Source: a candidate division WWE3 bacterium CSP1-7 (GTDB taxonomy: Bacteria; Patescibacteriota; WWE3; 9FT-COMBO-53-11). Taken from it: a DNA stretch of 52,912 bases. Position 1 is the stretch's first letter, and every line of letters starts with the position of its first letter. The stretch lies in contig LDXK01000003.1 in assembly GCA_001443395.1 (NCBI GenBank), forward strand, positions 33,182 through 86,093, in the 5' to 3' direction. Position numbers and translations under genes: made by a program. The notes beneath the pieces are model-generated. The model saw only the letters and a program-made list of their open reading frames with translations, searched no databases and had not been told where the DNA came from. Positions 769 to 50,067 of this stretch are shown here, piece by piece.

Positions 769-843
769 TCCCCGGTAGCTCAGTGGTAGAGCGCGCGCCT
801 GTTAAGCGCTAGGTCGAAGGTTCGAATCCTTCCCGGGGAGCCA
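769..843 (+). tRNA. tRNA-Asn (anticodon GTT), CCA encoded
   Basis: Cloverleaf by hand: acceptor TCCCCGG/CCGGGGA, D stem GCTC/GAGC, anticodon loop CTGTTAA, T arm GAAGG-TTCGAAT-CCTTC, discriminator G, CCA. Confidence 0.9.
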
Positions 844-20291: not shown

Positions 20292-20368
20292 GGACGGGTA
20301 GCTTAGCGGTTTAAAGCATCAAGCTTATACCTTGAGGATCGAAGGTCCGAATCCTTCCCCGTCCACCA
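20292..20368 (+). tRNA. tRNA-Ile (anticodon TAT), CCA encoded
   Basis: Acceptor GGACGGG/CCCGTCC, D stem GCTT/AAGC, anticodon stem TCAAG/CTTGA, loop CTTATAC, T arm GAAGG-TCCGAAT-CCTTC, A, CCA. Confidence 0.85.
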
Positions 20369-22302: not shown

Positions 22303-23196
22303 TTACAACTCAGCGAGCTCCATTTTCTCCTGAGGAGCGGTGACTTCAATGTGATCAAGATACTTCTCGGTGGTGGAGAGGCGGCGGTGGCCAGCGATTT
22401 TGGAAACCAGCACCAGCGAAGCCCCTCGCTTGAGGTGGTGGGCAATAAAGGTGTGGCGCAGATCGTTGACGGTGGCGTCTTCGATTCCGGCCAGTTCCAA
22501 GAAACGCTTGATGGTTGAGCGGATGTTCCGCACCAACAGCGATTTACCTGTGCGGGTAATGAAAACGTGGTCGGCTTTGGTTTTGGGACGTTCGTCCAGG
22601 TAGGCCTGTAACGCTTTCTGGGAACGGGAATTCAGAGGAACGGTTCTCTCGGGGTGACGATTAAAGGAGGCAATCCGAATTTCCCCGGGACGGCCACCGG
22701 TACCGAATTTGGCGTCGGAATTCTCAAGCCGGGACAATTCTCCGATCCGCATTCCGGTCTGCAGAAGCAGCTCCACAATTGCGTAGGTGCGAGCGTCGTT
22801 TTGGACGGTATCGCGCAGGGCCCGGTATTCTGTTTCCGAAAGAATCCGCGGAGGCTTGGTTTCGAAGCGCGGATGGGAAACCAGCAAGGCGGGATCATCG
22901 GTAATAAACTCGTTAACCTTTAGGAAACGGAAGAAGGTCTTCACCGCATTGGTCTTGCGAGAAACTGATTTGGGGGTATATCCGTTCTTAAGAAGTTTTG
23001 CGAGAAATGCTTCGATATCTTCTTTGGAGATTTCGGCGAGATGCGCTTTTCGAAGTTCCTCCAGAAATTCAACCAACTGATCAATGTCCTTGCCGTAAGC
23101 AAGAACAGTAGATTGGGAGCGATTCTTATCTCTAAGATGGTCGACAAATTTTCGGTGCGCGTCGCGAATCGGGATCATTCCAGAGAAGATTATCAT
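22303..23196 (-). CDS. Tyrosine site-specific recombinase (XerC/XerD-like, phage integrase family)
   Basis: N-terminal SAM-like domain; C-terminal ...RHTFIAHHLKRGASLVLVSKIAGHRRLSTTEKYL (R-H-R-Y catalytic pattern). Confidence 0.85.
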   Translation of the reverse strand: MIIFSGMIPIRDAHRKFVDHLRDKNRSQSTVLAYGKDIDQLVEFLEELRKAHLAEISKEDIEAFLAKLLKNGYTPKSVSRKTNAVKTFFRFLKVNEFITDDPALLVSHPRFETKPPRILSETEYRALRDTVQNDARTYAIVELLLQTGMRIGELSRLENSDAKFGTGGRPGEIRIASFNRHPERTVPLNSRSQKALQAYLDERPKTKADHVFITRTGKSLLVRNIRSTIKRFLELAGIEDATVNDLRHTFIAHHLKRGASLVLVSKIAGHRRLSTTEKYLDHIEVTAPQEKMELAEL

Positions 23197-23228
23197 TAAC
23201 CCATAGGGTTGTCAAGAGAGGGGATAAA

Positions 23229-23325
23229 GTCAGTAAAGGCAGTAAAACCAGTTAAGTCAGTAAACAGGAACCTTTCCATCAGATTTATTGATGTTACTGT
23301 CTTTACTGCTTTTACTGGTGTTACT
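23229..23325. repeat. Inverted array of 9-bp-spaced CAGTAAA iterons (4 direct plus 4 inverted)
   Basis: CAGTAAA/CAGTTAA at 23231, 23240, 23249, 23258. Complements (T/G)TTACT(G/A) at 23293, 23302, 23311, 23320. The arms are separated by about 25 bp. Confidence 0.85.
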
Positions 23326-23334
23326 ATTTTATTG

Positions 23335-23706
23335 ATGAAGCGTCCTGCCATTCTGCTCCTAATTATTTTGGCTCTCTTTTTCCTAACTGCTTTGGTTCGA
23401 TCCTACATTCTGATTCGGGCGAGAGGTGGGGAATTGGACCGCTTGCGGGGTCAGGTGGACCTACTCCAGGGTAAGGTGGATGAGCGAGAGGGGGCGCTTT
23501 CCTACTACAAATCCCCGGAGTTTATCTACAAGGAGGCCCTGGAACAGCTGGGCTGGACCCGCCGCGGCGAAGTGATCCCCGACCTCCCGGATTGGAAGGG
23601 TAAGGATATCGAGATCGAGGATAAGCCGGCCGGTTCCTCGATCGCGGCCGTCGCGGAACCACTTCCTTATTGGAAGCGCTGGCGCAACCTATTTTTTGAG
23701 AATTAA
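23335..23706 (+). CDS. Septum formation initiator (FtsB/DivIC-like) protein
   Basis: Start moved to ATG 23335 (MKRPAILLLII...): TM then coiled coil LDRLRGQVDLLQGKVDERE...YIYKEALEQLGW. The track's first 42 codons are a translation of the iteron array. Confidence 0.65.
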   Translation: MKRPAILLLIILALFFLTALVRSYILIRARGGELDRLRGQVDLLQGKVDEREGALSYYKSPEFIYKEALEQLGWTRRGEVIPDLPDWKGKDIEIEDKPAGSSIAAVAEPLPYWKRWRNLFFEN

Positions 23707-23723
23707 TCTTCCTGTACTATAAT
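23696..23723 (+). promoter_or_regulatory. Sigma70-type promoter of the tRNA(CAT) cluster
   Basis: TTGAGA (23696-23701), 16-nt spacer, TATAAT (23718-23723); first tRNA starts 11 nt downstream. Confidence 0.7.
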
Positions 23724-23733
23724 TGAGTAACGT

Positions 23734-23808
23734 AGCGGGCTGGTGGAACGGTTACCACGCCTGGCCCATAACCAGGAGGACCCGGTTCAATTCCGGGGCC
23801 CGCAACCA
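23734..23808 (+). tRNA. tRNA-Met (CAT), initiator-like, CCA encoded
   Basis: Aligns to E. coli tRNA-fMet architecture: A1xA72 mismatch, acceptor GCGGGC/GCCCGC, D stem GTGG/CCAC, anticodon arm CCTGG-CCCATAA-CCAGG, T arm CCCGG-TTCAATT-CCGGG, ACCA. Confidence 0.8.
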
Positions 23809-24048
23809 GGCTAGGTAGCTCATCCGGTTAGAGCGCCGCCCTCATATCGGCATCCGCCGGAGGCGGATACGCGATCTATCTTGAGAATCGCCAATCGGCG
23901 ATGTAGCTCAACGGTAAAGCATGGCCCTCATAAAGCCGAGACGGTGGTTCGACTCCACCCATCGCCACCACGCCGATAGATCGCTCCGCTTCCCGCGGAG
24001 CAAGATATAAAGCGGAGGTAGTCGGTTCGATTCCGACCCTAGCCACCA
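23809..24048 (+). tRNA. Interrupted tRNA (CAT), elongator-Met-like: exon 1 23809-23846, 163-nt insert, exon 2 24010-24048
   Basis: GGCTAGG-TA-GCTC..GAGC-G-CCGCC-CTCATA // A-AGCGG-AGGTA-GTCGG-TTCGATT-CCGAC-CCTAGCC-A-CCA. The halves form a cloverleaf only if 23847-24009 is removed. Confidence 0.6.
23897..23970 (+). tRNA. tRNA (CAT; Met or Ile2-type), complete, inside the insert of the preceding tRNA
   Basis: Acceptor GGCGATG/CATCGCC, D arm GCTC-AACGGTAA-AGC, anticodon arm TGGCC-CTCATAA-AGCCG, T arm GGTGG-TTCGACT-CCACC, A, CCA. Confidence 0.85.
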
Positions 24049-24108
24049 TCAGAATCCCACCTTTGATCTTTCCCTTTGGACTGGTTCGAGTGCTATCATT
24101 TCTCTGTT

Positions 24109-25113
24109 ATGGAAAAGAAAAGAGTTTTAACTGGCGATCGGCCGACCGGTCCGCTTCACCTCGGTCACTATGTTGGGACCCTCAAAGCCCGCCTGGAGCT
24201 GCAGGAGCAGGGGAATGAGGTCTTTATCCTCGTGGCGGACTACCACACTCTCACTCGCGGCATCAGCAAGGAAAAAACAGCCCAAATAAAGGTCAACACT
24301 AACGAACTCTTGTTGGATTATTTGGCGGTGGGTTTGGATCCTAAAAAGATAACCATCTATCGGCAGTCCGATATTCCCGCGGTCGCCGAGTTAGCACTTA
24401 TTTTCGGGATGTTAGTGACCGTACCGCGCCTCTCCCGGGTCCCGACTCTCAAGGAAGTGATGCGGGATGAGAAGATTGAAATTCCCTCCTTCGGACTCCT
24501 AGGTTATCCGGTCCTTCAGGCGGCGGACATTGCGCTGGTAAAGGGGGAGCTGGTTCCTGTGGGGAAGGATCAATCATCTCATTTGGAGGTGACGCGGGAG
24601 ATCATCCATCGGTTCAATAGCGAATTCGGCGAGGTCTTCCCCGAGCCGGAAGCCTTGGTCAGGGGTGACGTTCTTCCTGGCACCGACGGCAAAGCAAAGA
24701 TGAGTAAATCCCTCGGCAATGCGATTATGCTTTCCGACGACGAGAAAACGGTAAAGGGAAAGGTGATGGGAATGTACACCGATCCGACCCGGATCCGACC
24801 GACTGACCCCGGCCACATTGAAGGGAATCCGGTCTTCGCCTATCTTGATTCAATTGATTCTTCCAAAGATAAAGTGGCTGATCTCAAAGAGCGCTACCAA
24901 AAGGGGACGGTCGGAGATGTTGAGGTTAAAGAGTATTTGGCGAGGATCCTGAACGAATTTTTGAATCCGATTCGAGAGCGAAGGCAAGAATTTTCCAAAA
25001 ATGCTAACCTAGACGAGATCCTCGAGGCCGGTCGGGATAAGGTTTTGCCGATCGCGCAAGAAACTCTTGCCCAGGTAAGGAAAGCAATCGGAATCGGACG
25101 GCTCACTGCGTGA
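24109..25113 (+). CDS. trpS: Tryptophan--tRNA ligase
   Basis: HLGH (TGPLHLGHYVG) and KMSKS motifs; start moved to ATG 24109 (MEKKRVLTGDRPTG). Confidence 0.9.
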   Translation: MEKKRVLTGDRPTGPLHLGHYVGTLKARLELQEQGNEVFILVADYHTLTRGISKEKTAQIKVNTNELLLDYLAVGLDPKKITIYRQSDIPAVAELALIFGMLVTVPRLSRVPTLKEVMRDEKIEIPSFGLLGYPVLQAADIALVKGELVPVGKDQSSHLEVTREIIHRFNSEFGEVFPEPEALVRGDVLPGTDGKAKMSKSLGNAIMLSDDEKTVKGKVMGMYTDPTRIRPTDPGHIEGNPVFAYLDSIDSSKDKVADLKERYQKGTVGDVEVKEYLARILNEFLNPIRERRQEFSKNANLDEILEAGRDKVLPIAQETLAQVRKAIGIGRLTA

Positions 25114-32411: not shown

Positions 32412-34205
32412 ATGCTTTTTTCTAAACTGGCGCAATATTTTTCGCGGATCGAAGCCACCCCCAAACGCTTAGAGATTACCGCAATTCTCGCGGATCTTTT
32501 GAAAGAATCTTCTCCTGAGGAAATCGATAAAATCTGCTATCTCGTGCTTGGTCAGCTCGCCCCTCTCTACGAGGGCGTGGAGTTTAATCTCGCCGGAAAA
32601 ATGCTGCTGCGGGTGATGACGGATGCCTACATGGTTCCTGGAGCGGAGGTCGAGAAAATCGCCAAAGAGAAAGGGGATCTAGGGGATGCGGCAGAGGAAT
32701 TGGCGAAGAGGTCTAAAGTTTCCGGTTCACGGTTAACAGTCGGACAGGTGTATGCGAAGCTGCGGCAGATCGCCGAGGATTCCGGAACCGGCTCGCAGGA
32801 ACGCAAGGTCCGGGAAATGGCGGGGCTCTTCCAATCCCTCGATCCGCTTTCGGTTCGGTATGTTGCTCGGATTCCGGTGGCAAGCTTACGGTTAGGTTTC
32901 TCGGATAAAACCATCCTCGATGCGCTTTCGGTCGCCGAAGCGGGGGATAAATCCCTTCGCCCTCTGATCGAGCGGGCCTACAACGTCTCGGCCGACATCG
33001 GCCGGATCGCTCAGTTCGTTAAGAGTAAGGGAGCAAAAGGTATAGAAAAGATTGAAGTCACAGTGGGGGTCCCGGTGCGGATGGCGGCGGCGGAACGCCT
33101 GCCGACCCCGGCGGAAATCTTGGAGAAAATGGGTGGGAAGCTGGCCGCCGAGCCGAAGTATGACGGCTTTCGGGTTCAGGTTCACCTGGACAAAAGCCGC
33201 AAGCAGGCGGCGGATAATGAGGGCGTTGAGCAGCCGGCTCTGGCCGGATTGGTCGGGGTGGAAAAAGGTTCCTGGGTGCGAATCTTCTCCCGCAATCTGG
33301 AGAACACCACTCCGATGTTTCCGGAGATCGCCGCCGCCGCCCAGAAACTGGCGGCGAAATCATTAATCTTCGAGGGCGAAGCGATCGCCTACAATCCCGA
33401 TACTGAAGAATTTGAACCGTTCCAAGAAACCGCCAAGCGGAAGCGGAAGTACGGAATCAAGGAAAAGGCGGTCGAACTCCCTCTCAAAGTTTTTGCCTTT
33501 GATTTGCTTTACCTCGATGGCCGAGATCTCACCCGGGAACCCTACGAAACCCGGCGGCGGGCGCTGGAGAAGCTGGTTTCCGGTCATGAGGACACGATTA
33601 TCCTCGCCGAAGAGCGGGTTTTCACCAATGCGAAAGAGCTGGAGAAATTCTTTTTGGAGGAGATCGAGCACGGGTTAGAAGGGATTATGACAAAACGATT
33701 GGACGGAGTTTATCAAGCGGGAGTGCGCAATTTCAATTGGGTCAAGTTGAAGCGGGTCGAGGAGGGGAAACTGGAGGACACGATCGATTGCGTTGTTCTC
33801 GGCTATTACACGGGCCGAGGTAAACGGACCCAGTTCGGGATCGGGGGATTCCTCGTTGCCGTTTACGATGACAAAAACGACACTTTCAAAACGATTTCCC
33901 GCGTTGGCTCCGGTCTAACCGATGAGGAATGGCGGGAGATGAAGAAGCGGGTGGATGCCCTTAAGACCAAGGAAAAACCCAAGAACGCGGATGTTGCCAA
34001 AGAGCACAATCCAGATGTTTGGGCCGAGCCTTCCATCGTGGTGGCGATCCGGGCCGATGAGATTACCAAATCTCCGTTGCACACGGCGGGTGGGTTGGCC
34101 CTGCGCTTCCCCCGTCTGATGGCTTTCCGTGACGATAAAAATCCCGAACAGGCGACAACGGTCGCTGAAATGGAAGAGTTGTTTCGGCAGCAGCGAAAAC
34201 GCTAA
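32412..34205 (+). CDS. lig: ATP-dependent DNA ligase (archaeal/eukaryal Lig I-like)
   Basis: Adenylation motif AAEPKYDGFRVQVH, further nucleotidyltransferase and OB-fold motifs; 597 aa. Confidence 0.9.
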   Translation: MLFSKLAQYFSRIEATPKRLEITAILADLLKESSPEEIDKICYLVLGQLAPLYEGVEFNLAGKMLLRVMTDAYMVPGAEVEKIAKEKGDLGDAAEELAKRSKVSGSRLTVGQVYAKLRQIAEDSGTGSQERKVREMAGLFQSLDPLSVRYVARIPVASLRLGFSDKTILDALSVAEAGDKSLRPLIERAYNVSADIGRIAQFVKSKGAKGIEKIEVTVGVPVRMAAAERLPTPAEILEKMGGKLAAEPKYDGFRVQVHLDKSRKQAADNEGVEQPALAGLVGVEKGSWVRIFSRNLENTTPMFPEIAAAAQKLAAKSLIFEGEAIAYNPDTEEFEPFQETAKRKRKYGIKEKAVELPLKVFAFDLLYLDGRDLTREPYETRRRALEKLVSGHEDTIILAEERVFTNAKELEKFFLEEIEHGLEGIMTKRLDGVYQAGVRNFNWVKLKRVEEGKLEDTIDCVVLGYYTGRGKRTQFGIGGFLVAVYDDKNDTFKTISRVGSGLTDEEWREMKKRVDALKTKEKPKNADVAKEHNPDVWAEPSIVVAIRADEITKSPLHTAGGLALRFPRLMAFRDDKNPEQATTVAEMEELFRQQRKR

Positions 34206-38186: not shown

Positions 38187-38765
38187 ATGTCAAAGTTTAA
38201 GAAAATCACCATTTTTGGTTTCGCGGACGCAAAAGAGGGCGATCAGGTCTGGAAGGATGCCTTTGCGACGACCAAACTCCTGGCGGAGAGCGGTTACACG
38301 ATTGTGAACGGCGGCGGGCCGGGAGTAATGAAAGCCGCGACTCTGGGCGCCCACGCTGGCGGGGGAAAAACCATCGGTGTCAGCTTCTACCCCAAAAACG
38401 CCCCCCTTTTTGAAGGCCGTGATAAGACCAACCTGATCGACGAGGAGATCGTGACCGAACACTACATCGACCGGACGATGAAGCTGCTGGACGCGGGCGA
38501 CGCCTACATCGCCTTTAAAGGCGGAACCGGTACCCTCTCGGAATTCGGGATGGCCTGGGGTCTGGCCCGCCTCTATTTCGGCCACCACAAGCCCTTCATT
38601 CTTTTCGGCGAGTTCTGGCGGGACATGTTGGCGGCTTTTGAGAAAAATATGTATATTAGAGGGGAGGAGATGAAGGTCTACCGGATTGTGGACAGCCCGG
38701 AGGAAGTTTTGAAGGAGATCCGAAGGTTGGAAGCGGACAACGACGGCCCGGCCGTTGTTTACTAA
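38187..38765 (+). CDS. LOG family / TIGR00730 (cytokinin riboside 5'-monophosphate phosphoribohydrolase-like) protein
   Basis: GGGPGVMKAATLGA and FKGGTGTLSEF motifs. Confidence 0.8.
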   Translation: MSKFKKITIFGFADAKEGDQVWKDAFATTKLLAESGYTIVNGGGPGVMKAATLGAHAGGGKTIGVSFYPKNAPLFEGRDKTNLIDEEIVTEHYIDRTMKLLDAGDAYIAFKGGTGTLSEFGMAWGLARLYFGHHKPFILFGEFWRDMLAAFEKNMYIRGEEMKVYRIVDSPEEVLKEIRRLEADNDGPAVVY

Positions 38766-38820
38766 TGACACAGCGCAAGCGAGTAATTATTGCAACCGAG
38801 CATCAGCGAGGACAGCATTA
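38766..38820 (+). repeat. Stop-codon-adjacent repeat, family 1, copy C
   Basis: TGACACAGCGCAAGCGAGTAATTATTGCAACCGAGCATCAGCGAGGACAGCATTA; starts 1 nt after the LOG stop and ends 2 nt before the tkt ATG. Confidence 0.85.
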
Positions 38821-38822
38821 AT

Positions 38823-39689
38823 ATGCAATTTCCCAAGAAAGAACACTACAGCGTAGATGAGCTCTACAAAATGGCGAACGAGATGAGGGTTGACCTCATT
38901 AAGATGCTGACCAAAGCCGGTTCCGGCCACTCCGCCTCACCGTTGGGGACGATGGAGATCTGGACCGCCTTCTACTTCCACATCCTGAACCACAACCCCA
39001 AAAAGCCCGATTGGGAAGAGCGGGACCGCCTCCTGCTCTCCTGCGGCCACTACTGTCCGGTTCGCTACACGGTAATGGCCCACGCTGGCTATTTCCCCCA
39101 CGAAGAGCTCTGGACCCTGCGGAAATACGGCACCCGCTTGCAGGGGCACCCGGAGCGGGAGCGCTTGCCGGGAGTGGAAACAACCTCCGGTCCGCTCGGT
39201 TCGGGCCTCTCTCAAGCCGCCGGGATGGCGAAGGTTGCCAAGATGGACGGCAAAAAGTGGTGGACCTACGTGCTGATGAGCGACGGGGAACAGCAGACCG
39301 GCCAGATCTGGGAGGCGGCGATGTTCGCCGGCAACAACAAGCTTGGTAATTTGATCGGAATTCTCGACCGCAACAACATCCAGATCAACGGGTTTACCGA
39401 AGACGTGATGCCGTTGGAGCCCCTGATGCAGAAATACGAGGCCTTCGGTTGGCACGTGCAGGATATCGACGGCCACAACATCGAGGAGCTGATCGACGCC
39501 GTCAACAAGGCCAAAGCCGTCTTCAACAAGCCCTCTCTGATCCTGGCTCACACGATTCCGGGGCGGGGAGTGGAGTTTATGGAGCGGAAGTATGAGTGGC
39601 ACGGCAAGCCGCCCAATCCGAAGGAAGCGCTGGAAGCGATTAGGGAGATCAGAACTCTTGGTGGTAGGATCAGGAGCGAACACGAATAA
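38823..39689 (+). CDS. tkt: Transketolase, N-terminal (TPP-binding) subunit
   Basis: Start at ATG 38823; GSGHSASPLGTMEI..., GHPE, SDGEQQTGQIWEA motifs; the track TTG start 38790 lies in the repeat. Confidence 0.85.
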   Translation: MQFPKKEHYSVDELYKMANEMRVDLIKMLTKAGSGHSASPLGTMEIWTAFYFHILNHNPKKPDWEERDRLLLSCGHYCPVRYTVMAHAGYFPHEELWTLRKYGTRLQGHPERERLPGVETTSGPLGSGLSQAAGMAKVAKMDGKKWWTYVLMSDGEQQTGQIWEAAMFAGNNKLGNLIGILDRNNIQINGFTEDVMPLEPLMQKYEAFGWHVQDIDGHNIEELIDAVNKAKAVFNKPSLILAHTIPGRGVEFMERKYEWHGKPPNPKEALEAIREIRTLGGRIRSEHE

Positions 39690-40693
39690 TGCCAATAAAC
39701 AAAGCCGCAAAACTGGTTGAAAACATCTTGGACAAGGCCAAGCTGGAAGCCAAACCCACTCGGGATGGATTCGGATTGGGAGCGGTGGCGGCCGGCAAAA
39801 AGGATCCGAACGTAGTGGTCCTCTGCGCGGATTTGTCGGAGTCGACCCGGGCCCAGATGTTCCAGAAGGAATTTCCCGATCGGTACGTCGAGGTGGGAGT
39901 GGCGGAGCAGAACATGGCCTCCCTCGCCGCCGGGATGGCGCTCGCCGGCAAGGTGCCCTTTATCGCCTCCTACGCCGCTTTTTCTCCGGGGAGAAACAAC
40001 GAACAGATCCGGACGACCATTTCGCTGAACAACGCTAACGTTAAGATCATGGGGGCCCACGCCGGAGTTTCGGTCGGACCGGACGGGGCGACCCACCAGG
40101 CGCTGGAGGACATGGCGCTGATGCGGGTCCAACCCAACATGAAGGTTTTTGCGCCCTGCGATGTTTGGGAAGCCAAGAAAATCGTCGAAGCGATCGCCCA
40201 GATCTACGGCCCGGCCTACATGCGCTTTGCCCGCGATAAAACGCCGGTGATTACGACCGCAGAAACGCCGTTTGCGATCGGCGTGGCTCAACTTTTTTGG
40301 GAATCTGCCAAAGAAAAAGTGGATGTGGCGATCTTCGCCTGCGGACCGTTGGTGCACGAGTCGATTTTGGCGGCCGCGGTGCTTGAAAAAGAGGGTTTGG
40401 GAGTGGAGGTTTACGACAGCTCGTCCGTCAAGCCGCTTGATGAAAAAACTGTTCTCGCTGCCGCGAAAAAGGCCGGAGCGGTTGTGACAGCGGAGGAGCA
40501 CCAAGCCAAAGGCGGGTTGGGAGGGGCGATTGCCGAATTTCTGGGAGAGAACCATCCTGTTCCAGTAATTAGGGTCGGCGTGAAGGACCGTTTTGGCGAA
40601 TCCGGCGAGCCGGACGAGTTGATGGTGGCTTTTGGACTGGTCGCCAAAGACATTGTTGCTGCTGCCAAGAGAGCCGTAGAGCTGAAGAAGTAA
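39689..40693 (+). CDS. tkt: Transketolase, C-terminal (pyrimidine-binding) subunit
   Basis: FPDRYVEVGVAEQNMASLAAGMA motif; start overlaps the previous stop (TAATG). Confidence 0.85.
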   Translation: MPINKAAKLVENILDKAKLEAKPTRDGFGLGAVAAGKKDPNVVVLCADLSESTRAQMFQKEFPDRYVEVGVAEQNMASLAAGMALAGKVPFIASYAAFSPGRNNEQIRTTISLNNANVKIMGAHAGVSVGPDGATHQALEDMALMRVQPNMKVFAPCDVWEAKKIVEAIAQIYGPAYMRFARDKTPVITTAETPFAIGVAQLFWESAKEKVDVAIFACGPLVHESILAAAVLEKEGLGVEVYDSSSVKPLDEKTVLAAAKKAGAVVTAEEHQAKGGLGGAIAEFLGENHPVPVIRVGVKDRFGESGEPDELMVAFGLVAKDIVAAAKRAVELKK

Positions 40694-40715
40694 TAAAGAG
40701 TAATTTAATTGTTCC

Positions 40716-40739
40716 TTATAGTATATTAATATACTATAA
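40716..40739. promoter_or_regulatory. Perfect 24-bp AT-rich palindrome (candidate operator) upstream of fba
   Basis: TTATAGTATATTAATATACTATAA equals its own reverse complement; ends 19 nt before ATG 40758. Confidence 0.6.
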
Positions 40740-40757
40740 CAGACTGGGTATATTTAA

Positions 40758-41618
40758 ATGAATTCAAGAGAAATTTTTGAACGGGCAAGACAAGAGGGTT
40801 ACGCGGTTGGGGCTTTTAACGCCGCCAATTTGGAGACTCTAAAGGCAATTGCCCAGGCGGCGGGGGCGCAAAAAGCGCCGGTGATCGCCGAGAGCTCCCA
40901 CGGCGAGACCGAATTTATTGAGGCCGCTAACTTGGTTGATGTTGTCCGCAATTTGAGTGAAGAGTTCAGCGTGCCGATGCTCATCAACTTGGATCATTCC
41001 CCTTCGGTGGAGGCGGCCGAGGAGGGCATCGCCGCCGGTTACGACCTGATTCACATCAACGCTTCCAAGCTGCCATACGAGGAGAATGTCGCCGCTACCA
41101 AAAAGATTGCCGAGGAAGCCCATGCGAAAGGGCTCTTGTGCGAGGCGGAGCTGACGCCGATCGGAGGAACGAGCGCGGTCCACGAGGAGAAAGCCGAGGA
41201 CGTGGTGGCTCAAGAGAAGATGACCGATCCGGACCAGGCCGAGGATTTCGTCGGGAGAACGGGGATTGATACTCTCGCCGTTTCGATCGGCAACGTCCAC
41301 GGGGTTTACGCGAGCGAGAAGCATCTCGATTTGGACCTTTTAGCGAAGCTGCGGGAGCGGCTTTCCTGTTTCTTCAGCCTGCACGGGGGGAGTACCATCT
41401 CGGAAGAACAGGTCCGGAATGCGATCAAGATTGGCAAAATCGTTAAGGTGAACGTCAACACCGAACTCCGGATTGCCTACCGGAAAACACTGGAGGAAAC
41501 TCTCAAATCTTCGGATGAAGTGGCGATCTACAAGATTATGCCTCCCGTGATCGCGGCCGTTCAAAAAATTATCGAGGCCAAAATCACCCTCTTCGGCTCC
41601 GCCGGCAAAGCTTCCTGA
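40758..41618 (+). CDS. fba: Class II fructose-bisphosphate aldolase
   Basis: GYAVGAFNAANLETLKAI, LDHS, ...IGNVHG... motifs of class II ketose-bisphosphate aldolases. Confidence 0.85.
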   Translation: MNSREIFERARQEGYAVGAFNAANLETLKAIAQAAGAQKAPVIAESSHGETEFIEAANLVDVVRNLSEEFSVPMLINLDHSPSVEAAEEGIAAGYDLIHINASKLPYEENVAATKKIAEEAHAKGLLCEAELTPIGGTSAVHEEKAEDVVAQEKMTDPDQAEDFVGRTGIDTLAVSIGNVHGVYASEKHLDLDLLAKLRERLSCFFSLHGGSTISEEQVRNAIKIGKIVKVNVNTELRIAYRKTLEETLKSSDEVAIYKIMPPVIAAVQKIIEAKITLFGSAGKAS

Positions 41619-41620
41619 AA

Positions 41621-41652
41621 AACAAAAAAGCAGCGAATTTGGGTTCGCTGCT
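41621..41652 (-). terminator. Rho-independent terminator of 41674-42090
   Basis: AGCAGCGAA (41629-41637) / TTCGCTGCT (41644-41652); minus strand continues TTTTTTGTTTTT. Confidence 0.75.
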
Positions 41653-41673
41653 TGGTAGTCGTTCCCGACAAGA

Positions 41674-42090
41674 TTACCGGTTGAGATAGTCGGTGTAGTC
41701 TTTCTGCACGGTGAAGCCGAAGTGCTTCGCCAGCCGTTGGGCGCGCCGAAACTCTCTTCGGCTTTTCCGGAAGACCCATTTCCAGTTGAGGCTGTCTTTC
41801 AGCAGCTTCTTGGCGTTCTTCTCAGCCTTTTTCCTCTCTGGCGATTTATCCTCGAGATCGATGGACTCGCTCATTCCGGCGAGAAACCCCTTGGCGCAGG
41901 CACGTTGGTAGCGGCGGAAAATGTCGAGTGGCTCGGCCATCGCCATCAGCCTCCCGTCGACCCCCGCTTGCGTCGCATTGCGGCCGAAGTATCGGATGAA
42001 CCGTCGCCGCAAGAACCAGTTCCGGATGGAAATGGCGATCGAAGCCAAAACCATCCCCAACAGCAGATAGAAAAGGGTCCTGTAATCCAT
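41674..42090 (-). CDS. Membrane-anchored basic hypothetical protein (138 aa)
   Basis: RBS GGAGGAGAG; TATAAT on the minus strand at 42121-42126; N-terminal TM. Confidence 0.6.
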   Translation of the reverse strand: MDYRTLFYLLLGMVLASIAISIRNWFLRRRFIRYFGRNATQAGVDGRLMAMAEPLDIFRRYQRACAKGFLAGMSESIDLEDKSPERKKAEKNAKKLLKDSLNWKWVFRKSRREFRRAQRLAKHFGFTVQKDYTDYLNR

Positions 42091-42153
42091 TTCGTCTCTC
42101 CTCCAACTCAGATTTGTCCTATTATACTACCCTACTATGGGATTTCAATCTTT

Positions 42154-42187
42154 CCTCTGCTAAAATAATTCCAAAAGAAGGGAGGCG
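42154..42187 (+). promoter_or_regulatory. Promoter-leader module, copy 1 (extended -10 TGCTAAAAT 42158-42166 plus SD)
   Basis: CCTCTGCTAAAATAATTCCAAAAGAAGGGAGGCG; 30 of 34 positions match 43136-43168. Confidence 0.6.
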
Positions 42188-42189
42188 AG

Positions 42190-42435
42190 ATGCTGACCTG
42201 CGAACTTTCCGTCAACGGCCGGGTGGTTGGGACTCTGACCGCGCACCGAACGACTCGACGGGATGGGAAGGGCCGCTATTCCTACGGTTGTGTCATTCGC
42301 ACTCCAGAGGGAGTCACCCGAAACGCGATTGTCTGGCACGACCCTAGCGACGGGATTTGGGCGCTGGTCCGGTCGGCGATCGAGGATCTCCGCCCGGAGA
42401 AGTGGTTTCCGGGTCCGGACAGGAAGGAGAACTAG
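42190..42435 (+). CDS. Hypothetical protein (81 aa)
   Basis: RBS GGGAGG; immediately followed by the next ORF. Confidence 0.6.
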   Translation: MLTCELSVNGRVVGTLTAHRTTRRDGKGRYSYGCVIRTPEGVTRNAIVWHDPSDGIWALVRSAIEDLRPEKWFPGPDRKEN

Positions 42436-42696
42436 ATGGCCAGGCCGGGTCGAGCCCAGTTCGGGATCGGTCACGTCTGCAGTCTGCCGGGGTTCGGGAT
42501 GAGTCCCGACGATCTTTGCCCGCAGTGCGAGTGCGAGCGGCTGGTGGAGCTCGGGGTTCCCCGCGAGATCGCCTGGCGCGCCGGCCGGATTCGGCAGTTG
42601 ATCGATTCGGGCATTGTTTCTCCCAAGACTATGGAAGGGCTTTGGGAGGATTTTCGGGCGCTGGAACGGGAATACGGAAGTAAGATTCCGTCCTAG
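42436..42696 (+). CDS. Hypothetical protein (86 aa) with a CPQCEC motif
   Basis: RBS AAGGAG; start abuts the previous stop (TAGATG). Confidence 0.6.
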   Translation: MARPGRAQFGIGHVCSLPGFGMSPDDLCPQCECERLVELGVPREIAWRAGRIRQLIDSGIVSPKTMEGLWEDFRALEREYGSKIPS

Positions 42697-42806
42697 TAGT
42701 GAGCGTAGTCGAATCTAGATCGTTTCAAGGGCTGAACTCATCGTTCGGCCCTTCTTTTTATTTTGCTCCCCGTTGTAGAATTACGTTATAGAGAGAGGAG
42801 GGGAGG

Positions 42807-42986
42807 ATGGCGAAAGGGAAAAAGGCGTACCGATCGAGAGAGGAACTGCGTTTGGTTCTGAAGAAATATCGAGAGAGTGCTAAGCGGCTGCGGAAGTTCT
42901 CCGGGTTTACGCCGCTGAATGGGGTGGAGCGGATGGCTCTGGATTGTTTTGAGGCTCTTGGAGAGGCTCTCTATTCTCTTCGATAG
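42807..42986 (+). CDS. Small basic hypothetical protein (59 aa), not in the ORF track
   Basis: My translation MAKGKKAYRSREELRLVLKKYRESAKRLRKFSGFTPLNGVERMALDCFEALGEALYSLR*; RBS GAGAGGAGGGGAGG. Confidence 0.5.
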   Translation: MAKGKKAYRSREELRLVLKKYRESAKRLRKFSGFTPLNGVERMALDCFEALGEALYSLR

Positions 42987-43083
42987 CCTCTTTTTCTTCA
43001 TCGGGATAAACCGCTCCGCCCTCGTCTTCCCAGCGGTGCATGTCTTCTTCGGGATGATTGGGGGGCTCGATCGGCTCGTCCAT
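42907..43083 (-). CDS. Small acidic protein (58 aa) with a WEDEGG motif, not in the ORF track
   Basis: My translation MDEPIEPPNHPEEDMHRWEDEGGAVYPDEEKEAIEENREPLQEPQNNPEPSAPPHSAA*; weak RBS; overlaps 42807-42986 by 80 nt. Confidence 0.35.
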   Translation of the reverse strand: MDEPIEPPNHPEEDMHRWEDEGGAVYPDEEKEAIEENREPLQEPQNNPEPSAPPHSAA

Positions 43084-43135
43084 CCTAAAATAAACCTACC
43101 ACAAGCTACCGTTTCTGTCCTTTATTTTATTTCCC

Positions 43136-43168
43136 CCTCTGTTAGAATAATTCCAAAGAAAGGAGGCG
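43136..43168 (+). promoter_or_regulatory. Promoter-leader module, copy 2 (extended -10 TGTTAGAAT 43140-43148 plus SD)
   Basis: CCTCTGTTAGAATAATTCCAAAGAAAGGAGGCG; see copy 1. Confidence 0.6.
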
Positions 43169-43171
43169 TCC

Positions 43172-43471
43172 ATGCCGAAATTTGGACGCAGTTGGGTGAT
43201 GCTTCGGGCAGGGGTGATTCGCCGCCGGCGAGAGCGCCTCGTGAAACGGTGGCCGCACTCGGAAAAGGAAGAGATGGAGATGTCGGTTGAGGTGTCCGCG
43301 GCGCTACGGGCGCTCCGGCCCGGAACCTACCGGCCGTTCAGACTTCATCGGTTGCTGGACCAGTTTCCTAATTTCATGGTTACTCGTGGGGGTCATGAAA
43401 TGGTCGAAAAGGGCCTGGCGGAGTGGACGCCAAATTCCCGCCTCAAGATTCTGCCGAAGGAGAAGAGGTAA
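43172..43471 (+). CDS. Hypothetical protein (99 aa), paralog of the next gene
   Basis: RBS AAGGAGG; C-terminal QFPNFMV...MVEKGLA...SRLKILPKE shared with the next ORF. Confidence 0.6.
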   Translation: MPKFGRSWVMLRAGVIRRRRERLVKRWPHSEKEEMEMSVEVSAALRALRPGTYRPFRLHRLLDQFPNFMVTRGGHEMVEKGLAEWTPNSRLKILPKEKR

Positions 43472-43734
43472 TGTACCAGAACTGGGCGGAGATGGGTGGT
43501 GGTTCGGGCATGAGCGCCGCCGAAGAGCATGCTCTCTACGAAGGCGCCTTTGAGGTCGTGAAGCAGCTGCCGCCGCGGGTGTACTCTCCGGATGGGGTTG
43601 CTCGCCGGGTGCCGCAATTCCCCCGGTACACCGTGATGGCGGCGATTTGGAGAATGATCGACAAGGGTCTGGCGAAAATGACGCTGGCGTCCCGCGTCCG
43701 GATTCTGCCGCCGAAGGAGGAGTCGAATGGTTGA
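43471..43734 (+). CDS. Hypothetical protein (87 aa), paralog of the previous gene
   Basis: Start moved to ATG 43471 (TAATG overlap, RBS AAGGAG); QFPRYTV...MIDKGLA...SRVRILPPKE. Confidence 0.6.
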   Translation: MYQNWAEMGGGSGMSAAEEHALYEGAFEVVKQLPPRVYSPDGVARRVPQFPRYTVMAAIWRMIDKGLAKMTLASRVRILPPKEESNG

Positions 43735-44254
43735 TTCGCAGGGACGGGAACGGAGATGGCTGAATAGGGTTATGTGGGAATCTGGTCGTACTCTGTTCTG
43801 CACTCCGGCGGAGGTGTTTGGAAAGGGCATTAACCCTTTCTATCCGCAATCCGACGAACCTCCTGCTCGAGTGGACAAAATCCACGTGGGGTTGGTCAAG
43901 GCGCTGTTGGAGAAATCCTGGTGCGCCGAAACGGCCACGAGAGGCAAGTGGTCGTCAGAAGTGCCGAGCCTGAATCAGTGCAAGGTTTCCGCCCTGGTCG
44001 TTCAGGAATTGCTGGGCGGTGAACTCCTCCGGTGCGATATGACCAACGGCGATAGCCATTACTGGAATCGGTTGCCGGACGGGTCGGAGGTTGATCTGAC
44101 CACCGACCAGTTCAGGCACATTGATGGCAAACCGCTGCGGGAGACCGTGATCGTGATGGACCGGTCATACGTCTTGAGCTATCCCGACACGATGCGCCGA
44201 TACGCTATTCTCTTGCAGCGGGTGGCGTATGCCCTCTGGGGAGAGCCGGAATGA
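43727..44254 (+). CDS. YunG-like hypothetical protein (175 aa)
   Basis: RBS AAGGAGGAG; 8-nt overlap with the previous gene; ...NQCKVSALVVQELLGGELLRCDMTNGDSHYWNRLPDGSEVDLTTDQF resembles the YunG family (from memory, unverified). Confidence 0.5.
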   Translation: MVDSQGRERRWLNRVMWESGRTLFCTPAEVFGKGINPFYPQSDEPPARVDKIHVGLVKALLEKSWCAETATRGKWSSEVPSLNQCKVSALVVQELLGGELLRCDMTNGDSHYWNRLPDGSEVDLTTDQFRHIDGKPLRETVIVMDRSYVLSYPDTMRRYAILLQRVAYALWGEPE

Positions 44255-44268
44255 TCTTGATCTGTTTC

Positions 44269-44298
44269 AAGGACCGAAACCCCCGTTTCGGTCCTTTT
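44269..44298 (+). terminator. Rho-independent terminator
   Basis: 12-bp stem AAGGACCGAAAC / GTTTCGGTCCTT then TT. Confidence 0.75.
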
Positions 44299-44310
44299 CC
44301 TGTCGGTTGG

Positions 44311-44348
44311 AAAAAATAAAAAACTCGTCAGGGGGATTGACGAGTTTT
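44311..44348 (-). terminator. Rho-independent terminator of the minus-strand membrane-protein genes
   Basis: AAAACTCGTCA / TGACGAGTTTT; minus strand continues TTTATTTTTT. Confidence 0.75.
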
Positions 44349-44365
44349 GGTTTCCGAACCGACGA

Positions 44366-44587
44366 TCAGCCCAGCGCGTACAGGACGGGACCAACGATGA
44401 AGAGGGCCCCGGTGGCGATGAAGACCAGGCTGCCGCACCCGAGCGCGATGTGTCCGGGCTCGAAGCCGAGGTCTCGGATGTCGCGGTAGGTGTACTGCAC
44501 GCCCAAGATACCCCCGGCGAGCGCCGCCAGACCGAGCACGAGCGCTTTGGCGTCGAGCAGATTCACGAACGTTAGGAAGTCAGACAT
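44366..44587 (-). CDS. Small membrane protein (73 aa)
   Basis: Start moved to ATG 44587 (RBS GGAGGATAAC); two hydrophobic segments. Confidence 0.55.
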   Translation of the reverse strand: MSDFLTFVNLLDAKALVLGLAALAGGILGVQYTYRDIRDLGFEPGHIALGCGSLVFIATGALFIVGPVLYALG

Positions 44588-44620
44588 GTTATCCTCCGAC
44601 AACGCTAAGACGTTCGGCAG

Positions 44621-44851
44621 CTAGCGACCCGGAATCCGAATGTACCATTGGACACCAGTCATCGGAACCAGTCCAAATGTGCCGGCGATGAGGAACAGGC
44701 CCTCAGCGATAACGACCACCCCGCTGATTCGTAAAAATGTCGGGATCCAGCGGTATGATCCCTGCGCCACATCGTTCGGCACGATCAAGGCCATCCAGAT
44801 GCCGCCGAGTATTGCCAGCAGGCCGATCAGGAGCGATCCTCCATCAAACAT
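44621..44851 (-). CDS. Small membrane protein (76 aa)
   Basis: RBS TAGGAGGCAACG; extended -10 TGTTATAAT on the minus strand at 44935-44943. Confidence 0.6.
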   Translation of the reverse strand: MFDGGSLLIGLLAILGGIWMALIVPNDVAQGSYRWIPTFLRISGVVVIAEGLFLIAGTFGLVPMTGVQWYIRIPGR

Positions 44852-45105
44852 CGTTGCCTCCTAAAGAAACTAGGAGCTACGGCGGATTGACTCTGCGGAA
44901 CTACGGGTGTTACCCCTTCTCCAAACGAATACCCTAATTATAACACACTATGGGTCAATAATAAAGTGAATCTTCTGGATCGGTGGGCTTTTTTTGCCGG
45001 TTGGAAACCGCTACCCCTCTCCTAAACCGTATCCTATAGCAGTTGATTTTCTGGAATAGCTAGGGTATAATTGAACCATCTCTGACACAGGCAAAGGAGG
45101 CTAAG

Positions 45106-45360
45106 ATGTCAGTTGCCGATAGAGCCATCGAGGTGGGCGAATTCCAGATGAGATTCATCCTCATCGCCCTTCCGTTCATCGCCTTGGCCGTCTACGGTTT
45201 TGAGCGCTTCATCGCGGCGGGAGCTTCGCCCGGGGACGAGGTAATCCTCTTTGTCGCGTTCCTGTGGCCGATGGTTCTCGCGGCGCTCGTGCCCACCATC
45301 GCCGTTTTTGCCCTCGTTGAACATCTTCGAGAGCGGCGGAAGCGAGGGAAGAGCGCGTGA
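45106..45360 (+). CDS. Small membrane protein (84 aa)
   Basis: TATAAT at 45066-45071, RBS AAAGGAGG, terminator follows. Confidence 0.6.
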   Translation: MSVADRAIEVGEFQMRFILIALPFIALAVYGFERFIAAGASPGDEVILFVAFLWPMVLAALVPTIAVFALVEHLRERRKRGKSA

Positions 45361-45368
45361 CGTACCTG

Positions 45369-45401
45369 GGACCAGATTCTTTACGGATCTGGTCCTTTTT
45401 T
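45369..45401 (+). terminator. Rho-independent terminator
   Basis: GGACCAGAT / ATCTGGTCC then TTTTTT. Confidence 0.8.
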
Positions 45402-45469
45402 GTTCTTTACCCTTGAAACATTAAAATGCCGTGTTAATCTTATAGCAACTCGGAAAGGAGAAAGAGGCC

Positions 45470-45775
45470 ATGGCATCGGATAGCGCCGTTCGTTTGAAGG
45501 AGAGCTGGGCGGCAATGCCGGCGGAGTTCTTTGAGCCGCTGACTTTTGGGGAGCTTGAGAAATACGATCGGTTCATTTGCCTCCCATCACCGGGGGACAA
45601 CCACGGTCACGGTGGGTTCAGGGGGACGGAGTACGTCTTCGTCAAGACCGAGCAGATCGTCACCGAGGTGACCCCCGGTCTTTCTTACGGCATTCCCCAC
45701 GGGAGAGCTAGAAACTTCTTTCGGGGAGTCCCCAGCGATTTTCCTCACTCGATGTTTGTAATCAGGATTCTTTAG
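45470..45775 (+). CDS. Hypothetical protein (101 aa)
   Basis: RBS GAAAGGAGAAAGAGG. Confidence 0.55.
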   Translation: MASDSAVRLKESWAAMPAEFFEPLTFGELEKYDRFICLPSPGDNHGHGGFRGTEYVFVKTEQIVTEVTPGLSYGIPHGRARNFFRGVPSDFPHSMFVIRIL

Positions 45776-45807
45776 ATCATTTCGCCACATCCCGAGAGGA
45801 GAGAAGG

Positions 45808-46065
45808 ATGAAAAGATCAAACCTCACGCTGGTCTTATTGGTTGCTCTGATCGTTGTTGCCGTGGCGATAATTGTCATCGCCAGTGGTCCCCGAAGTGAG
45901 ATCGTGAGCAGGTCGGTAACCATTCCGGGAGAGAGTGTCAGGTTGGATTGGCATTCGGTCAATCCTCCCCGACCGGGACTAACATGCTGGGCCGCTGAGA
46001 TTTCCGAGTCTTTTGGATACCTCGGCTACGGCTATTCCTACATCTACTGCGAGCCCTCTTCTTAA
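45808..46065 (+). CDS. Small secreted/membrane-anchored protein (85 aa)
   Basis: RBS GAGAGGAGAGAAGG; N-terminal TM. Confidence 0.55.
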   Translation: MKRSNLTLVLLVALIVVAVAIIVIASGPRSEIVSRSVTIPGESVRLDWHSVNPPRPGLTCWAAEISESFGYLGYGYSYIYCEPSS

Positions 46066-46086
46066 CAAGAGGGCTTTTTCTTTTTT
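46053..46086 (+). terminator. Rho-independent terminator
   Basis: GCCCTCTT / AAGAGGGC then TTTTTCTTTTTT. Confidence 0.8.
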
Positions 46087-46092
46087 CGTTAC

Positions 46093-46122
46093 TAAAAAAC
46101 CCAACGGGTTAGCGTTGGGTTT
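46093..46122 (-). terminator. Rho-independent terminator of the ASCH gene
   Basis: AAACCCAACG / CGTTGGGTTT; minus strand continues TTTTTT; the ASCH stop codon lies in the loop. Confidence 0.7.
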
Positions 46123-46573
46123 GGGAGGCGAGCAGAGCTTGGCGCACCGGTTCGGAGTCCACCCGGAACAGCTTCAGTGCGCCCTTGTACGGAATCGGTT
46201 CGGAGAACGGTCGCTGGTCTTCTAGAATCCAGGCGTAGGCGGTCTCGAGCGGAAATTGGCCGGTATCCAAGTGCCGGTCGCCCTCTTCTTTCCAGGTTTT
46301 CCGCGTGAATCGGAGGATTTCAGCCAGCTTGACACTGCCGATGATGGCTCCTCGCGGAACCGTTTCCATCGGGAATCTCCACATCGCCACTCGATCAAAC
46401 GTCATGCCGGCGTGGATCAGAAGCCGACCGCGGTACTTGGTCGCCCAGGTCCGGATCTCAATATCCTTGAGACCGAGGACGATCAAATTAGCCCAGGGTT
46501 GCCGGACCGACAAGGCCAACAAGCCGTTATTCGGCCATTCGCCGAATCTAGGTTCGCGGAGCGAGCCGTCCAT
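46109..46573 (-). CDS. ASCH domain protein
   Basis: LSVRQPWANLIVLGLKDIEIRTWATKYRGRLLIHA is the typical ASCH (PUA-like) N-terminal pattern. Confidence 0.7.
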   Translation of the reverse strand: MDGSLREPRFGEWPNNGLLALSVRQPWANLIVLGLKDIEIRTWATKYRGRLLIHAGMTFDRVAMWRFPMETVPRGAIIGSVKLAEILRFTRKTWKEEGDRHLDTGQFPLETAYAWILEDQRPFSEPIPYKGALKLFRVDSEPVRQALLASQTQR

Positions 46574-46662
46574 CTTCTCTCCTTTCGATCAAGACTGGTT
46601 CTAGGTTAGCACGGGGCGGGGGAAAATCAACGGTCTCCGATTTGTGGTAAAACTAGATTGAA

Positions 46663-47259: not shown

Positions 47260-47287
47260 CTGGAGAAAATCAACGTCGGTTGGACCG

Positions 47288-47638: not shown

Positions 47639-47639
47639 T

Positions 47640-48038: not shown

Positions 48039-48087
48039 CTGTTCGGTCAAATTATAGCGAATTTGTGGGAGTGCTATCATTCAAATA

Positions 48088-50063: not shown

Positions 50064-50067
50064 GGGT

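Follow-up and report, generated by a model that had tools for sequence, protein, structure and literature searches.

A complete tRNA gene in the anticodon loop of another tRNA gene in a WWE3 bacterium: a probable young, self-compensating insertion

Results

A complete tRNA(CAU) gene lies in the anticodon loop of a second tRNA(CAU) gene

Here, we describe one tRNA gene nested within another in a 52,912-nucleotide stretch of contig LDXK01000003.1 (hereafter, the window) from an uncultured groundwater bacterium of the WWE3 group of Patescibacteria (candidate phyla radiation, CPR). An earlier note, made from the DNA letters alone, had reported a complete tRNA(CAU) gene with structured flanks in the anticodon loop of another tRNA(CAU) gene; ARAGORN, Rfam and a comparison with the related locus L003 confirmed this arrangement, and all coordinates and sequences in the note proved correct. 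We propose that the arrangement is probably a young, self-compensating insertion, in which the inner tRNA works and the outer tRNA is either a relic or a processing scaffold. As far as we found in the literature, a complete tRNA gene in the anticodon loop of another tRNA gene is undescribed: the literature on nested tRNAs yielded nothing relevant, in keeping with the earlier note, which knew of no described tRNA inside another tRNA's intron.

All parts of the arrangement lie on the forward strand. The 5′ half of the outer tRNA-Met (hereafter, type A; 23809-23846) comprises the acceptor strand, the D arm, the 5′ strand of the anticodon stem and CTCATA, and is identical to L003:1944-1981. The 3′ half (24010-24048) comprises A38, the 3′ strand of the anticodon stem, the variable loop, the T arm, the acceptor strand and ACCA, and is identical to L003:1982-2020. 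Between them lies an insert of 163 nt (23847-24009), delimited by comparing the filled site of the window with the empty sites of L003, L030, L004 and L005, and by the intron mode of ARAGORN. The insert contains the inner tRNA-Met (hereafter, type C; 23897-23970), complete with an encoded CCA, which ARAGORN called as tRNA-Met(cat) and which folds into a full cloverleaf scoring 62.8 bits against a threshold of 29 for Rfam RF00005.

With default settings, ARAGORN and Rfam reported two CAU tRNAs at the locus, the inner tRNA and an initiator-like tRNA (23734-23808, forward strand, 51.7 bits). When introns were allowed, as the earlier note had proposed, ARAGORN called 23809-24048 as a tRNA-Met(cat) with a 163-nt intron. 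We noted that the same mode re-called an ordinary tRNA-Asn(GUU) (769-843, forward strand) with a 2-nt 'intron', a tool artefact, hence intron-mode calls need comparative confirmation. For the outer tRNA, such confirmation came from L003, which has the same XerC / DivIC-like / tRNA / trpS / ftsH synteny as the window and a tryptophanyl-tRNA synthetase (TrpRS) 86% identical to that of the window. The joined outer halves, which form a canonical cloverleaf, are base-for-base identical to a bona fide, uninterrupted 77-nt tRNA gene (L003:1944-2020) at the syntenic position, immediately 3′ of the initiator. The outer tRNA is hence a genuine gene that has gained an insert. L030 has the same uninterrupted type A gene as L003, and L004 and L005 have uninterrupted type A variants with compensatory T-stem changes.

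Since ATA occurs at both borders of the insert and the sequence of the empty site is CTCATAAAGCGG, the junction may lie at any of four positions, from 34/35 to 37/38. The ambiguity noted earlier on account of the two ATA copies thus holds, but the specific placement at 37/38 does not.

The same arrangement was found in 20 contigs from separate ENA and JGI samples, and also in L027/L039, L028, L038 and L042. In total, more than 25 contigs from differing samples, projects and assemblers (MEGAHIT k141, JGI, NCBI metagenome-assembled genome (MAG)) carry the same 240-nt structure, and they include allelic variants and several flanking backgrounds. We considered whether reads from two similar tRNA genes might have been mis-joined into a chimera, given that the two tRNAs have short identical stretches in common (for example, GTAGCTCA, CCCTCATAAAGC and GGTTCGA) and that some short contigs end inside the nested locus. 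Recurrence in more than 25 independently assembled contigs excludes such a mis-assembly, which the earlier note had raised as a possible undoing of the arrangement; we regard an artefact as effectively refuted, with a residual probability close to nil.

The outer and inner tRNAs appear to share an elongator tRNA-Met identity

Within the clade, the slot beside the initiator is filled by one of three alleles: type A (the outer tRNA), type B (which starts with GGCTGGG and occupies the same slot as type A), or the nested form, A[C]. The acceptor strands are GGCTAGG / CCTAGCC in type A, GGCTGGG / CCCAGCC in type B and GGCGATG / CATCGCC in type C, and type C has its D arm and anticodon arm in common with type B. 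All three types carry a CUCAUAA loop and a C31-A39 mismatch, two features that the earlier note had rightly ascribed to both the outer and the inner tRNA.

According to Silva et al., 2006 (PMC1635315), C3-G70 marks tRNA-Met or tRNA-fMet, while C4-G69 and C5-G68 are frequent in tRNA-Ile(CAU). The C3-G70 pair is present in types A, B and C, and C4-G69 and C5-G68 are absent from all of them; by these discriminators, applied to sequence only, all three look like elongator tRNA-Met rather than tRNA-Ile2(CAU). A tRNA-Ile(UAU) gene (20292-20368, forward strand) lies 3.5 kb upstream of the nested locus and adjoins a gene for a tRNA-binding-domain protein. It is found beside the same gene in L040 (3148-3223; a type-B genome) and L041 (6795-6870; a type-A genome). 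A tRNA-Ile with a UAU anticodon is rare in bacteria, and here it is kept in three WWE3 lineages. This tRNA is the likely AUA decoder, which suggests AUA decoding without lysidine or TilS in this clade, and the gain of such a tRNA-Ile(UAU) is known to render tRNA-Ile(CAU) and TilS dispensable. Since tRNA-Ile(UAU) can read AUA, a CAU-type tRNA-Ile2 would be unnecessary.

We infer that each genome needs one elongator tRNA-Met and that types A, B and C are interchangeable alleles of that tRNA. If the outer and inner tRNAs share this identity, the outer tRNA would be redundant once the inner one is present, and the insertion would be self-compensating. The inner tRNA is hence the presumed working elongator tRNA-Met.

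The flanks of the inner tRNA are predicted to form one long interrupted stem

The whole 240 nt is predicted to fold at -105.1 kcal/mol (z = -5.8). When both cloverleaves were enforced, the flanks of the inner tRNA (50 nt on the 5′ side, 39 nt on the 3′ side) paired as one long interrupted stem (-99.6 kcal/mol), whose segments of 5, 2, 5, 9 and 10 bp (approximately 31 bp) connect the outer anticodon stem with the base of the inner tRNA. Its 5′ strand is the left arm (23844-23880, forward strand), which includes the palindrome ATCCGCCGGAGGCGGAT and GCGATCTATC, and its 3′ strand is the right arm (23975-24008, forward strand), which includes GATAGATCGC, CTCCGCTTCCCGCGGAG and GATAT. Cofolding of the two flanks gave -46.2 kcal/mol, compared to -24.9 ± 3.2 kcal/mol for shuffled flanks, and none of 500 shuffles reached this value (z approximately -6.7). 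Two helices proposed in the earlier note are present, namely a perfect 10-bp helix between 23871-23880 and 23975-23984, and a 5-bp helix between ATATC and GATAT. By contrast, the proposed four-way junction with two local hairpins was not supported: it scored only -73.8 kcal/mol, approximately 26 kcal/mol worse than the long stem.

The leader in front of the inner tRNA (23881-23896, forward strand) is predicted to be unpaired, and contains an ATCGCC that can base-pair with GGCGAT in the acceptor strand of the inner tRNA. As DNA, the two arms constitute imperfect inverted repeats of approximately 35 nt each, matching at approximately 31 of 38 aligned positions, and each holds a small sub-terminal palindrome or hairpin with the same TCCGC...GCGGA stem.

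The nested allele is confined to a narrow lineage and has evidently moved by recombination

The nested arrangement is confined to one narrow lineage. It accompanies TrpRS sequences with 95-100% identity to that of the window, while type B is found at 93% and 89% identity, and uninterrupted type A at 92%, 86%, 83% and 75%. A scan of a genome collection for the anticodon arm of types B and C returned only the nested MAG DATDSA01, the sole nested species representative in that scan, and the type-B genome WWE3 RBG_19FT. A metagenome scan for the type A anticodon arm, a gap of 148-178 nt and the 3′ arm gave six matches: one was a real nested contig (of the same species, from Rifle) and five were chance matches inside protein genes. 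Within this range of gap lengths, no variant inserts of other lengths were found.

Upon comparison of the sequences around the nested allele, we noted that it occurs in several backgrounds. In L027 and L042, the nested allele is followed downstream by a spacer that is not related to that of the window (38 of 62 positions), and the type-B loci L032 and L043 have the window's downstream spacer (57/60 and 52/60). In L026, the upstream 1.1 kb is 91-98% identical to the empty-site locus L003 and only 66-82% identical to the window (22600-23733), and this L003-like region is joined to a window-type nested tRNA and trpS. L024 represents a third upstream background, hence the nested allele and trpS stand behind at least three. 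The mosaic upstream regions of L026 and L024 indicate crossovers inside the tRNA cluster, and tRNA alleles have evidently been exchanged as units, with crossovers at tRNA boundaries. In WWE3, the slot beside the initiator tRNA is thus one at which entire tRNA-Met alleles (A, B and nested A[C]) are swapped among lineages.

Nested alleles differ little from each other. A comparison of the window with L027 gave differences at 39 of the 152 fourfold sites of trpS (26%), but at only four sites of the 240-nt nested region and at none in the outer halves (0/77). Both flank differences between the two lie in the unpaired leader, and both changes in the inner tRNA of L027 are compatible with its structure: A5 to G gives a G-U pair, and A22 to G restores C13-G22. 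Across the nested alleles, only three flank sites vary; at one of these, 23858 in the left arm, a change from C to T (U in the RNA) gives a G-U pair and keeps the structure. An argument for selection from these figures (0/77 versus 26% at silent sites) was rejected as unsafe because the locus is demonstrably mosaic. The low divergence of the nested region is best read as recent recombinational spread, although purifying selection may offer an alternative.

One polymorphism bears directly on the outer tRNA. At 24012 (forward strand), a G to A change (G40A) replaces the outer C30-G40 pair by C-A, adjacent to the C31-A39 mismatch, and leaves three pairs in the outer anticodon stem. The A is present in 6 of 20 conspecific contigs (approximately 30%; L010, L012, L013, L016, L017 and L026). 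The earlier note had named stem-breaking substitutions in the outer halves as a sign of a dead gene, and this one is common in the population; we take it as a sign of relaxed constraint on the outer tRNA. In the anticodon stem of the neighbouring initiator, a C-G pair is replaced by G-C in L011 and L026, a compensatory change.

The insert is no known type of intron

The insert is no known intron type. A bulge-helix-bulge motif (two 3-nt bulges on opposite strands of a 4-bp helix, which together hold both splice sites) is absent from the predicted structure at all four possible junctions. In the canonical register of this motif, positions 32-35 (CUCA) face GAUA with 0/4 pairs, and the predicted fold instead has a 4×3 internal loop and, next to it, a 5-bp helix in which all candidate junctions are buried. 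For group I introns, group II introns and other ribozymes, no Rfam family matched 23650-24150 even at E ≤ 10. A 16-bit match to 'permuted tmRNA' (transfer-messenger RNA) and similar matches were set aside as noise. The terminal G of group I introns (omega-G) is lacking, since the four allowed junctions give an insert that ends in T, A, T or A, and only the junction at U36 yields a 5′ exon ending in U. Group II introns have six domains including domain V and span at least approximately 400 nt; the insert has 163 nt, of which 74 are a bona fide tRNA, and no Rfam match. The arrangement also does not correspond to the split or permuted tRNAs of Nanoarchaeum, Caldivirga and Cyanidioschyzon, whose halves form separate or permuted transcription units and have complementary leaders with such a motif, since the halves here are collinear in one unit with one promoter and no bulge-helix-bulge. 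Among approximately 40 open reading frames (ORFs) of the window scanned with Pfam, none encodes EndA, RtcB or TilS, and the literature on tRNA introns or splicing endonucleases in Patescibacteria/CPR yielded nothing relevant.

It is nevertheless conceivable that some bacterial pathway not yet described excises the insert and joins the outer halves, which would give two functional elongator tRNAs in addition to the initiator. In detail, RNase P and 3′ processing would free the inner tRNA-Met, the long stem would hold the halves, and an activity of Patescibacteria would trim and ligate them without a bulge-helix-bulge or a ribozyme. The position of the insert in the anticodon loop and the long stem, stacked on the outer anticodon stem and keeping the two halves in contact, are consistent with this idea, as are the identical outer halves of the window and L027 despite the divergence of their trpS genes. 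Moreover, the rRNA genes of CPR bacteria contain many insertions that are cut out of the mature RNA, some of them of unknown type. We nonetheless consider true splicing very unlikely. It would have to proceed without a bulge-helix-bulge motif, a group I/II core or a terminal G, on an insert mostly taken up by a bona fide tRNA, with no endonuclease or RNA ligase gene in the window, while close relatives have empty sites. G40A, which leaves just three anticodon-stem pairs, is common in the population. Furthermore, the outer and inner tRNAs apparently have the same elongator identity, so nothing requires rescue of the outer one. The earlier suggestion of an intron at the archaeal 37/38 position is therefore not borne out, given the four junctions without a bulge-helix-bulge, the missing group I/II signature and the uninterrupted gene in relatives. 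Of the other options in the earlier note, an insertion-disrupted pseudogene and a processing scaffold fit best.

A self-compensating insertion probably accounts for the locus

We propose the following sequence of events, which we consider probable. A small cassette, consisting of a complete type C elongator tRNA-Met gene bracketed by the approximately 35-nt imperfect inverted repeats, would have entered the anticodon loop of a resident type A elongator tRNA-Met gene in a recent event at the DNA level. The insertion would have destroyed the host gene and at the same time delivered a working replacement of the same identity, and would have been tolerated for this reason. The nested allele would since have moved between close lineages by recombination at tRNA boundaries.

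Transcription would start from a sigma-70-like promoter (TTGAGA, 16 nt, TATAAT; 23696-23723, forward strand; 11/12 consensus matches), which is the sole promoter-like site within 23000-24600, is kept in L032 and L003, and would drive the whole tRNA cluster. A single transcript would thus carry all three tRNA structures. RNase P would be expected to cut 5′ of the initiator, 5′ of the minihelix formed by the outer acceptor and T arm, and 5′ of the inner tRNA. The CCA end of the initiator (23808) abuts the first base of the outer tRNA (23809) with zero spacer, so the cut at the outer minihelix would also make the initiator CCA end. The long flank-flank stem would keep the two similar tRNAs from mis-pairing and is a plausible RNase III target, cleavage of which would free the inner 3′ end for trimming to the encoded CCA. 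The outer halves would not be rejoined; they would be by-products or, at most, a processing scaffold.

The latter role might have been fixed by selection, that is, the outer tRNA would no longer decode, while its acceptor/T-arm minihelix and the long stem are kept. The minihelix would give RNase P the site that creates the initiator 3′ CCA, and the stem would clamp the precursor for correct folding and release of the inner tRNA. Such a conserved scaffold would be a refinement of the insertion reading and not a competitor to it. It agrees with the missing spacer after the initiator CCA, which measures 0-2 nt in relatives. The changes among nested alleles all avoid the outer acceptor and T arms and the pairs of the stem: G40A lies in the anticodon stem, 23858 C to T keeps a G-U pair, and both flank changes of L027 fall in the unpaired leader. 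Divergence is also very low compared with silent sites of trpS. However, the variable sites are too few for a statistical test, recent recombination explains the low divergence equally well, and the dependence on RNase P is itself presumed; we hold a selected scaffold to be rather improbable.

Several points weigh against a young self-compensating insertion. A second type A copy, TilS, RtcB or an endonuclease may be encoded outside the window. If the locus were inherited vertically, the outer halves and the non-tRNA flanks would be under strong purifying selection, unlike a dead relic. The processing steps above are modelled on general bacterial tRNA maturation. Lastly, neither a second copy of the arms nor a stand-alone type C donor was found in the window, 43 related loci, the genome-collection scan, the metagenome scan, or viral, phage and plasmid collections.

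The cassette might be a mobile element

The origin of the cassette could be explained by a second refinement of the insertion reading. The insert might be a non-autonomous element of 160-163 nt, of the type of a miniature inverted-repeat transposable element (MITE), an intervening sequence (IVS) or a palindrome-associated transposable element (PATE) of the insertion sequence (IS) family IS200/IS605, that targets anticodon loops of elongator tRNA-Met genes and carries its own replacement tRNA-Met. Such an element could invade an essential single-copy gene without killing its host, and could spread among WWE3 by transposition or by homing-like gene conversion. The arms fit this idea, as inverted repeats (approximately 31/38 positions) with sub-terminal TCCGC...GCGGA hairpins, and cargo and target have the same identity. 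The sporadic presence of the insert among close relatives is also in its favour. In addition, the insert is near-identical despite 26% divergence at trpS fourfold sites and unrelated downstream spacers, as expected of a recent invasion of empty sites. The 2-3 bp repeat (AT or ATA) at both borders could be a target-site duplication, but it is too short to tell from plain microhomology.

Multiple copies, which would be typical of MITEs and PATEs, were not seen in the window, the 43 loci or viral contigs. No second arm copy is present in the 52.9-kb window or in approximately 200 kb of related loci, where a local short-word BLAST of the flanks gave only chance 9-13-mers. Viral contigs scanned for the 3′ part of the inner tRNA and the 10-bp helix pair contained neither, and a BLAST search of the 240 nt against phages and plasmids gave only tRNA-level matches (77-84% to tRNA-Met genes) and none to the flanks. 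Only one target site is known, and the cassette has neither a transposase nor a homing endonuclease linked to it; the neighbouring XerC-like gene also occurs in every relative with an empty site. Taken together, mobility of the cassette is a tentative proposal that we judge unlikely, though less so than true splicing.

Gene order and other features around the locus

Placement of the window in WWE3 agrees with its TrpRS, which is 87% identical to that of 'candidate division WWE3 bacterium RBG_19FT_COMBO_53_11' and 95% identical to that of a 'Patescibacteria group bacterium' MAG. The local order XerC-like / DivIC-like / tRNA cluster / trpS / ftsH / 5′-3′ exonuclease is common to all relatives examined. 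In the window, the XerC-like recombinase gene (22303-23196, minus strand) lies upstream, a DivIC-like ORF (23209-23706) lies between it and the tRNA cluster, and trpS (24109-25113, forward strand), which served as the marker of synteny and divergence, lies downstream.

The initiator-like tRNA is itself atypical. It has an A1-A72 mismatch, a G12-C23 pair, and U11-A24 in place of the A11-U24 of bacterial initiators, and its anticodon loop, CCCATAA, has C33 in place of the near-universal U33. Its homologue in L005 has a normal CTCATAA loop. Several relatives (L001/L002:2799-2949, L004:2756-2907, L030:810-962, L040:6970-7120 and L041:9756-9907) have the pair of initiator and elongator tRNAs, along with its promoter, in the opposite orientation to trpS; the pair is co-oriented with trpS in the window, L003, L005 and L032. 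In L003 only, a gene for an APH-family (aminoglycoside phosphotransferase-like) kinase lies between the tRNA pair and trpS (L003:2032-2967), another sign of an insertion hotspot at this spot.

Where the spacers otherwise diverge, the motif GCTATCATTTCTCTGTTATGG (24088-24111), located just before and including the trpS start codon, is almost invariant and recurs in L001, L004, L005, L030, L032 and L043. Possible roles are a regulatory site or a -10-like element followed by a very short leader. Farther downstream, the window encodes an ATP-dependent DNA ligase of the archaeal/eukaryal three-domain type (DNA_ligase_A_N, _M and _C; 32412-34205, forward strand), which is present in L041 too. The region 38190-52365 contains a run of ORFs without a Pfam match at E ≤ 1e-5 (38190-38771, 39548-40555, 41722-42168, 43304-43885, 46663-47259, 47288-47875, 49327-50007, 50068-51030 and 51155-51775), as is typical of CPR genomes.

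Discussion

The locus shows how a tRNA gene that is essential and probably single-copy can survive a disruptive insertion, namely through a replacement of the same identity. If the cassette is mobile, this would be a new selfish strategy that resembles target-restoring tRNA islands and self-splicing introns. The locus is also an annotation trap, in that default tRNA finders report only the inner gene of the nested pair, and a natural substrate for asking how RNase P handles tRNA-in-tRNA precursors.

Among introns, the insert can be compared with the protein-spliced introns of archaea and eukaryotes, which have a bulge-helix-bulge and are processed by EndA and RtcB. It likewise lies in the anticodon loop, with 37/38 among its allowed junctions, and its self-pairing extends the anticodon stem. 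The archaeal tRNA-Trp intron that houses a C/D box small RNA (sRNA) is a precedent for a functional small RNA inside a tRNA intron. However, the 3-nt bulge / 4-bp helix / 3-nt bulge is lacking here at every junction, the host is bacterial, the cargo is a whole tRNA, and no EndA or RtcB was seen in the window. Group I introns, such as those in cyanobacterial tRNA-Leu(UAA) and tRNA-fMet and in Azoarcus tRNA-Ile, also interrupt the anticodon loop of bacterial tRNAs, and U36 is a possible 5′ exon end. By contrast, the present insert is too short, is mostly tRNA, and lacks a terminal G, a P3-P9 core and a match to Intron_gpI (E ≤ 10).

Another likeness is found in insertions that are not spliced. 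In bacteria such as Salmonella, Campylobacter and Leptospira, IVSs in 23S/16S rRNA are excised by RNase III without religation. These, too, are stem-loops of 100-200 nt with imperfect inverted repeats that replace a terminal loop of a structural RNA, have no protein-coding capacity, and are sporadically present among close relatives or alleles. The 31-bp interrupted stem at a terminal loop and the patchy distribution of the nested allele agree with this pattern, and removal would here, too, probably be by endonucleolytic processing and not by splicing. The host, however, is a tRNA and not an rRNA: it is the anticodon loop that is interrupted, where fragmentation abolishes function, and the tip of the stem is a complete tRNA gene. 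MITEs and PATEs, as non-autonomous IS derivatives, are alike in architecture: 160-163 nt, approximately 35-nt (sub-)terminal inverted repeats, a short border repeat and no transposase. The insert differs in having a single known copy and a single known target, and its cargo is a tRNA gene.

Engineered 'tRNA scaffold' RNAs, made for stable expression by placing a recombinant RNA in the anticodon stem of a tRNA, offer a parallel of another kind. There, as here, a structured RNA is grafted on the anticodon stem of a tRNA-Met-like body that is still recognizable by RNase P. The nested locus, by contrast, is natural, and what is grafted is another tRNA, which RNase P would be expected to excise. 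Finally, integrative elements that target tRNA genes and bring a replacement tRNA segment are likewise harmless upon insertion as the incoming DNA restores function. In contrast to the nested cassette, these elements span kilobases, code for an integrase and repair the very gene they enter with a duplicate of its 3′ part, whereas the cassette supplies a whole second tRNA gene and leaves its target split.

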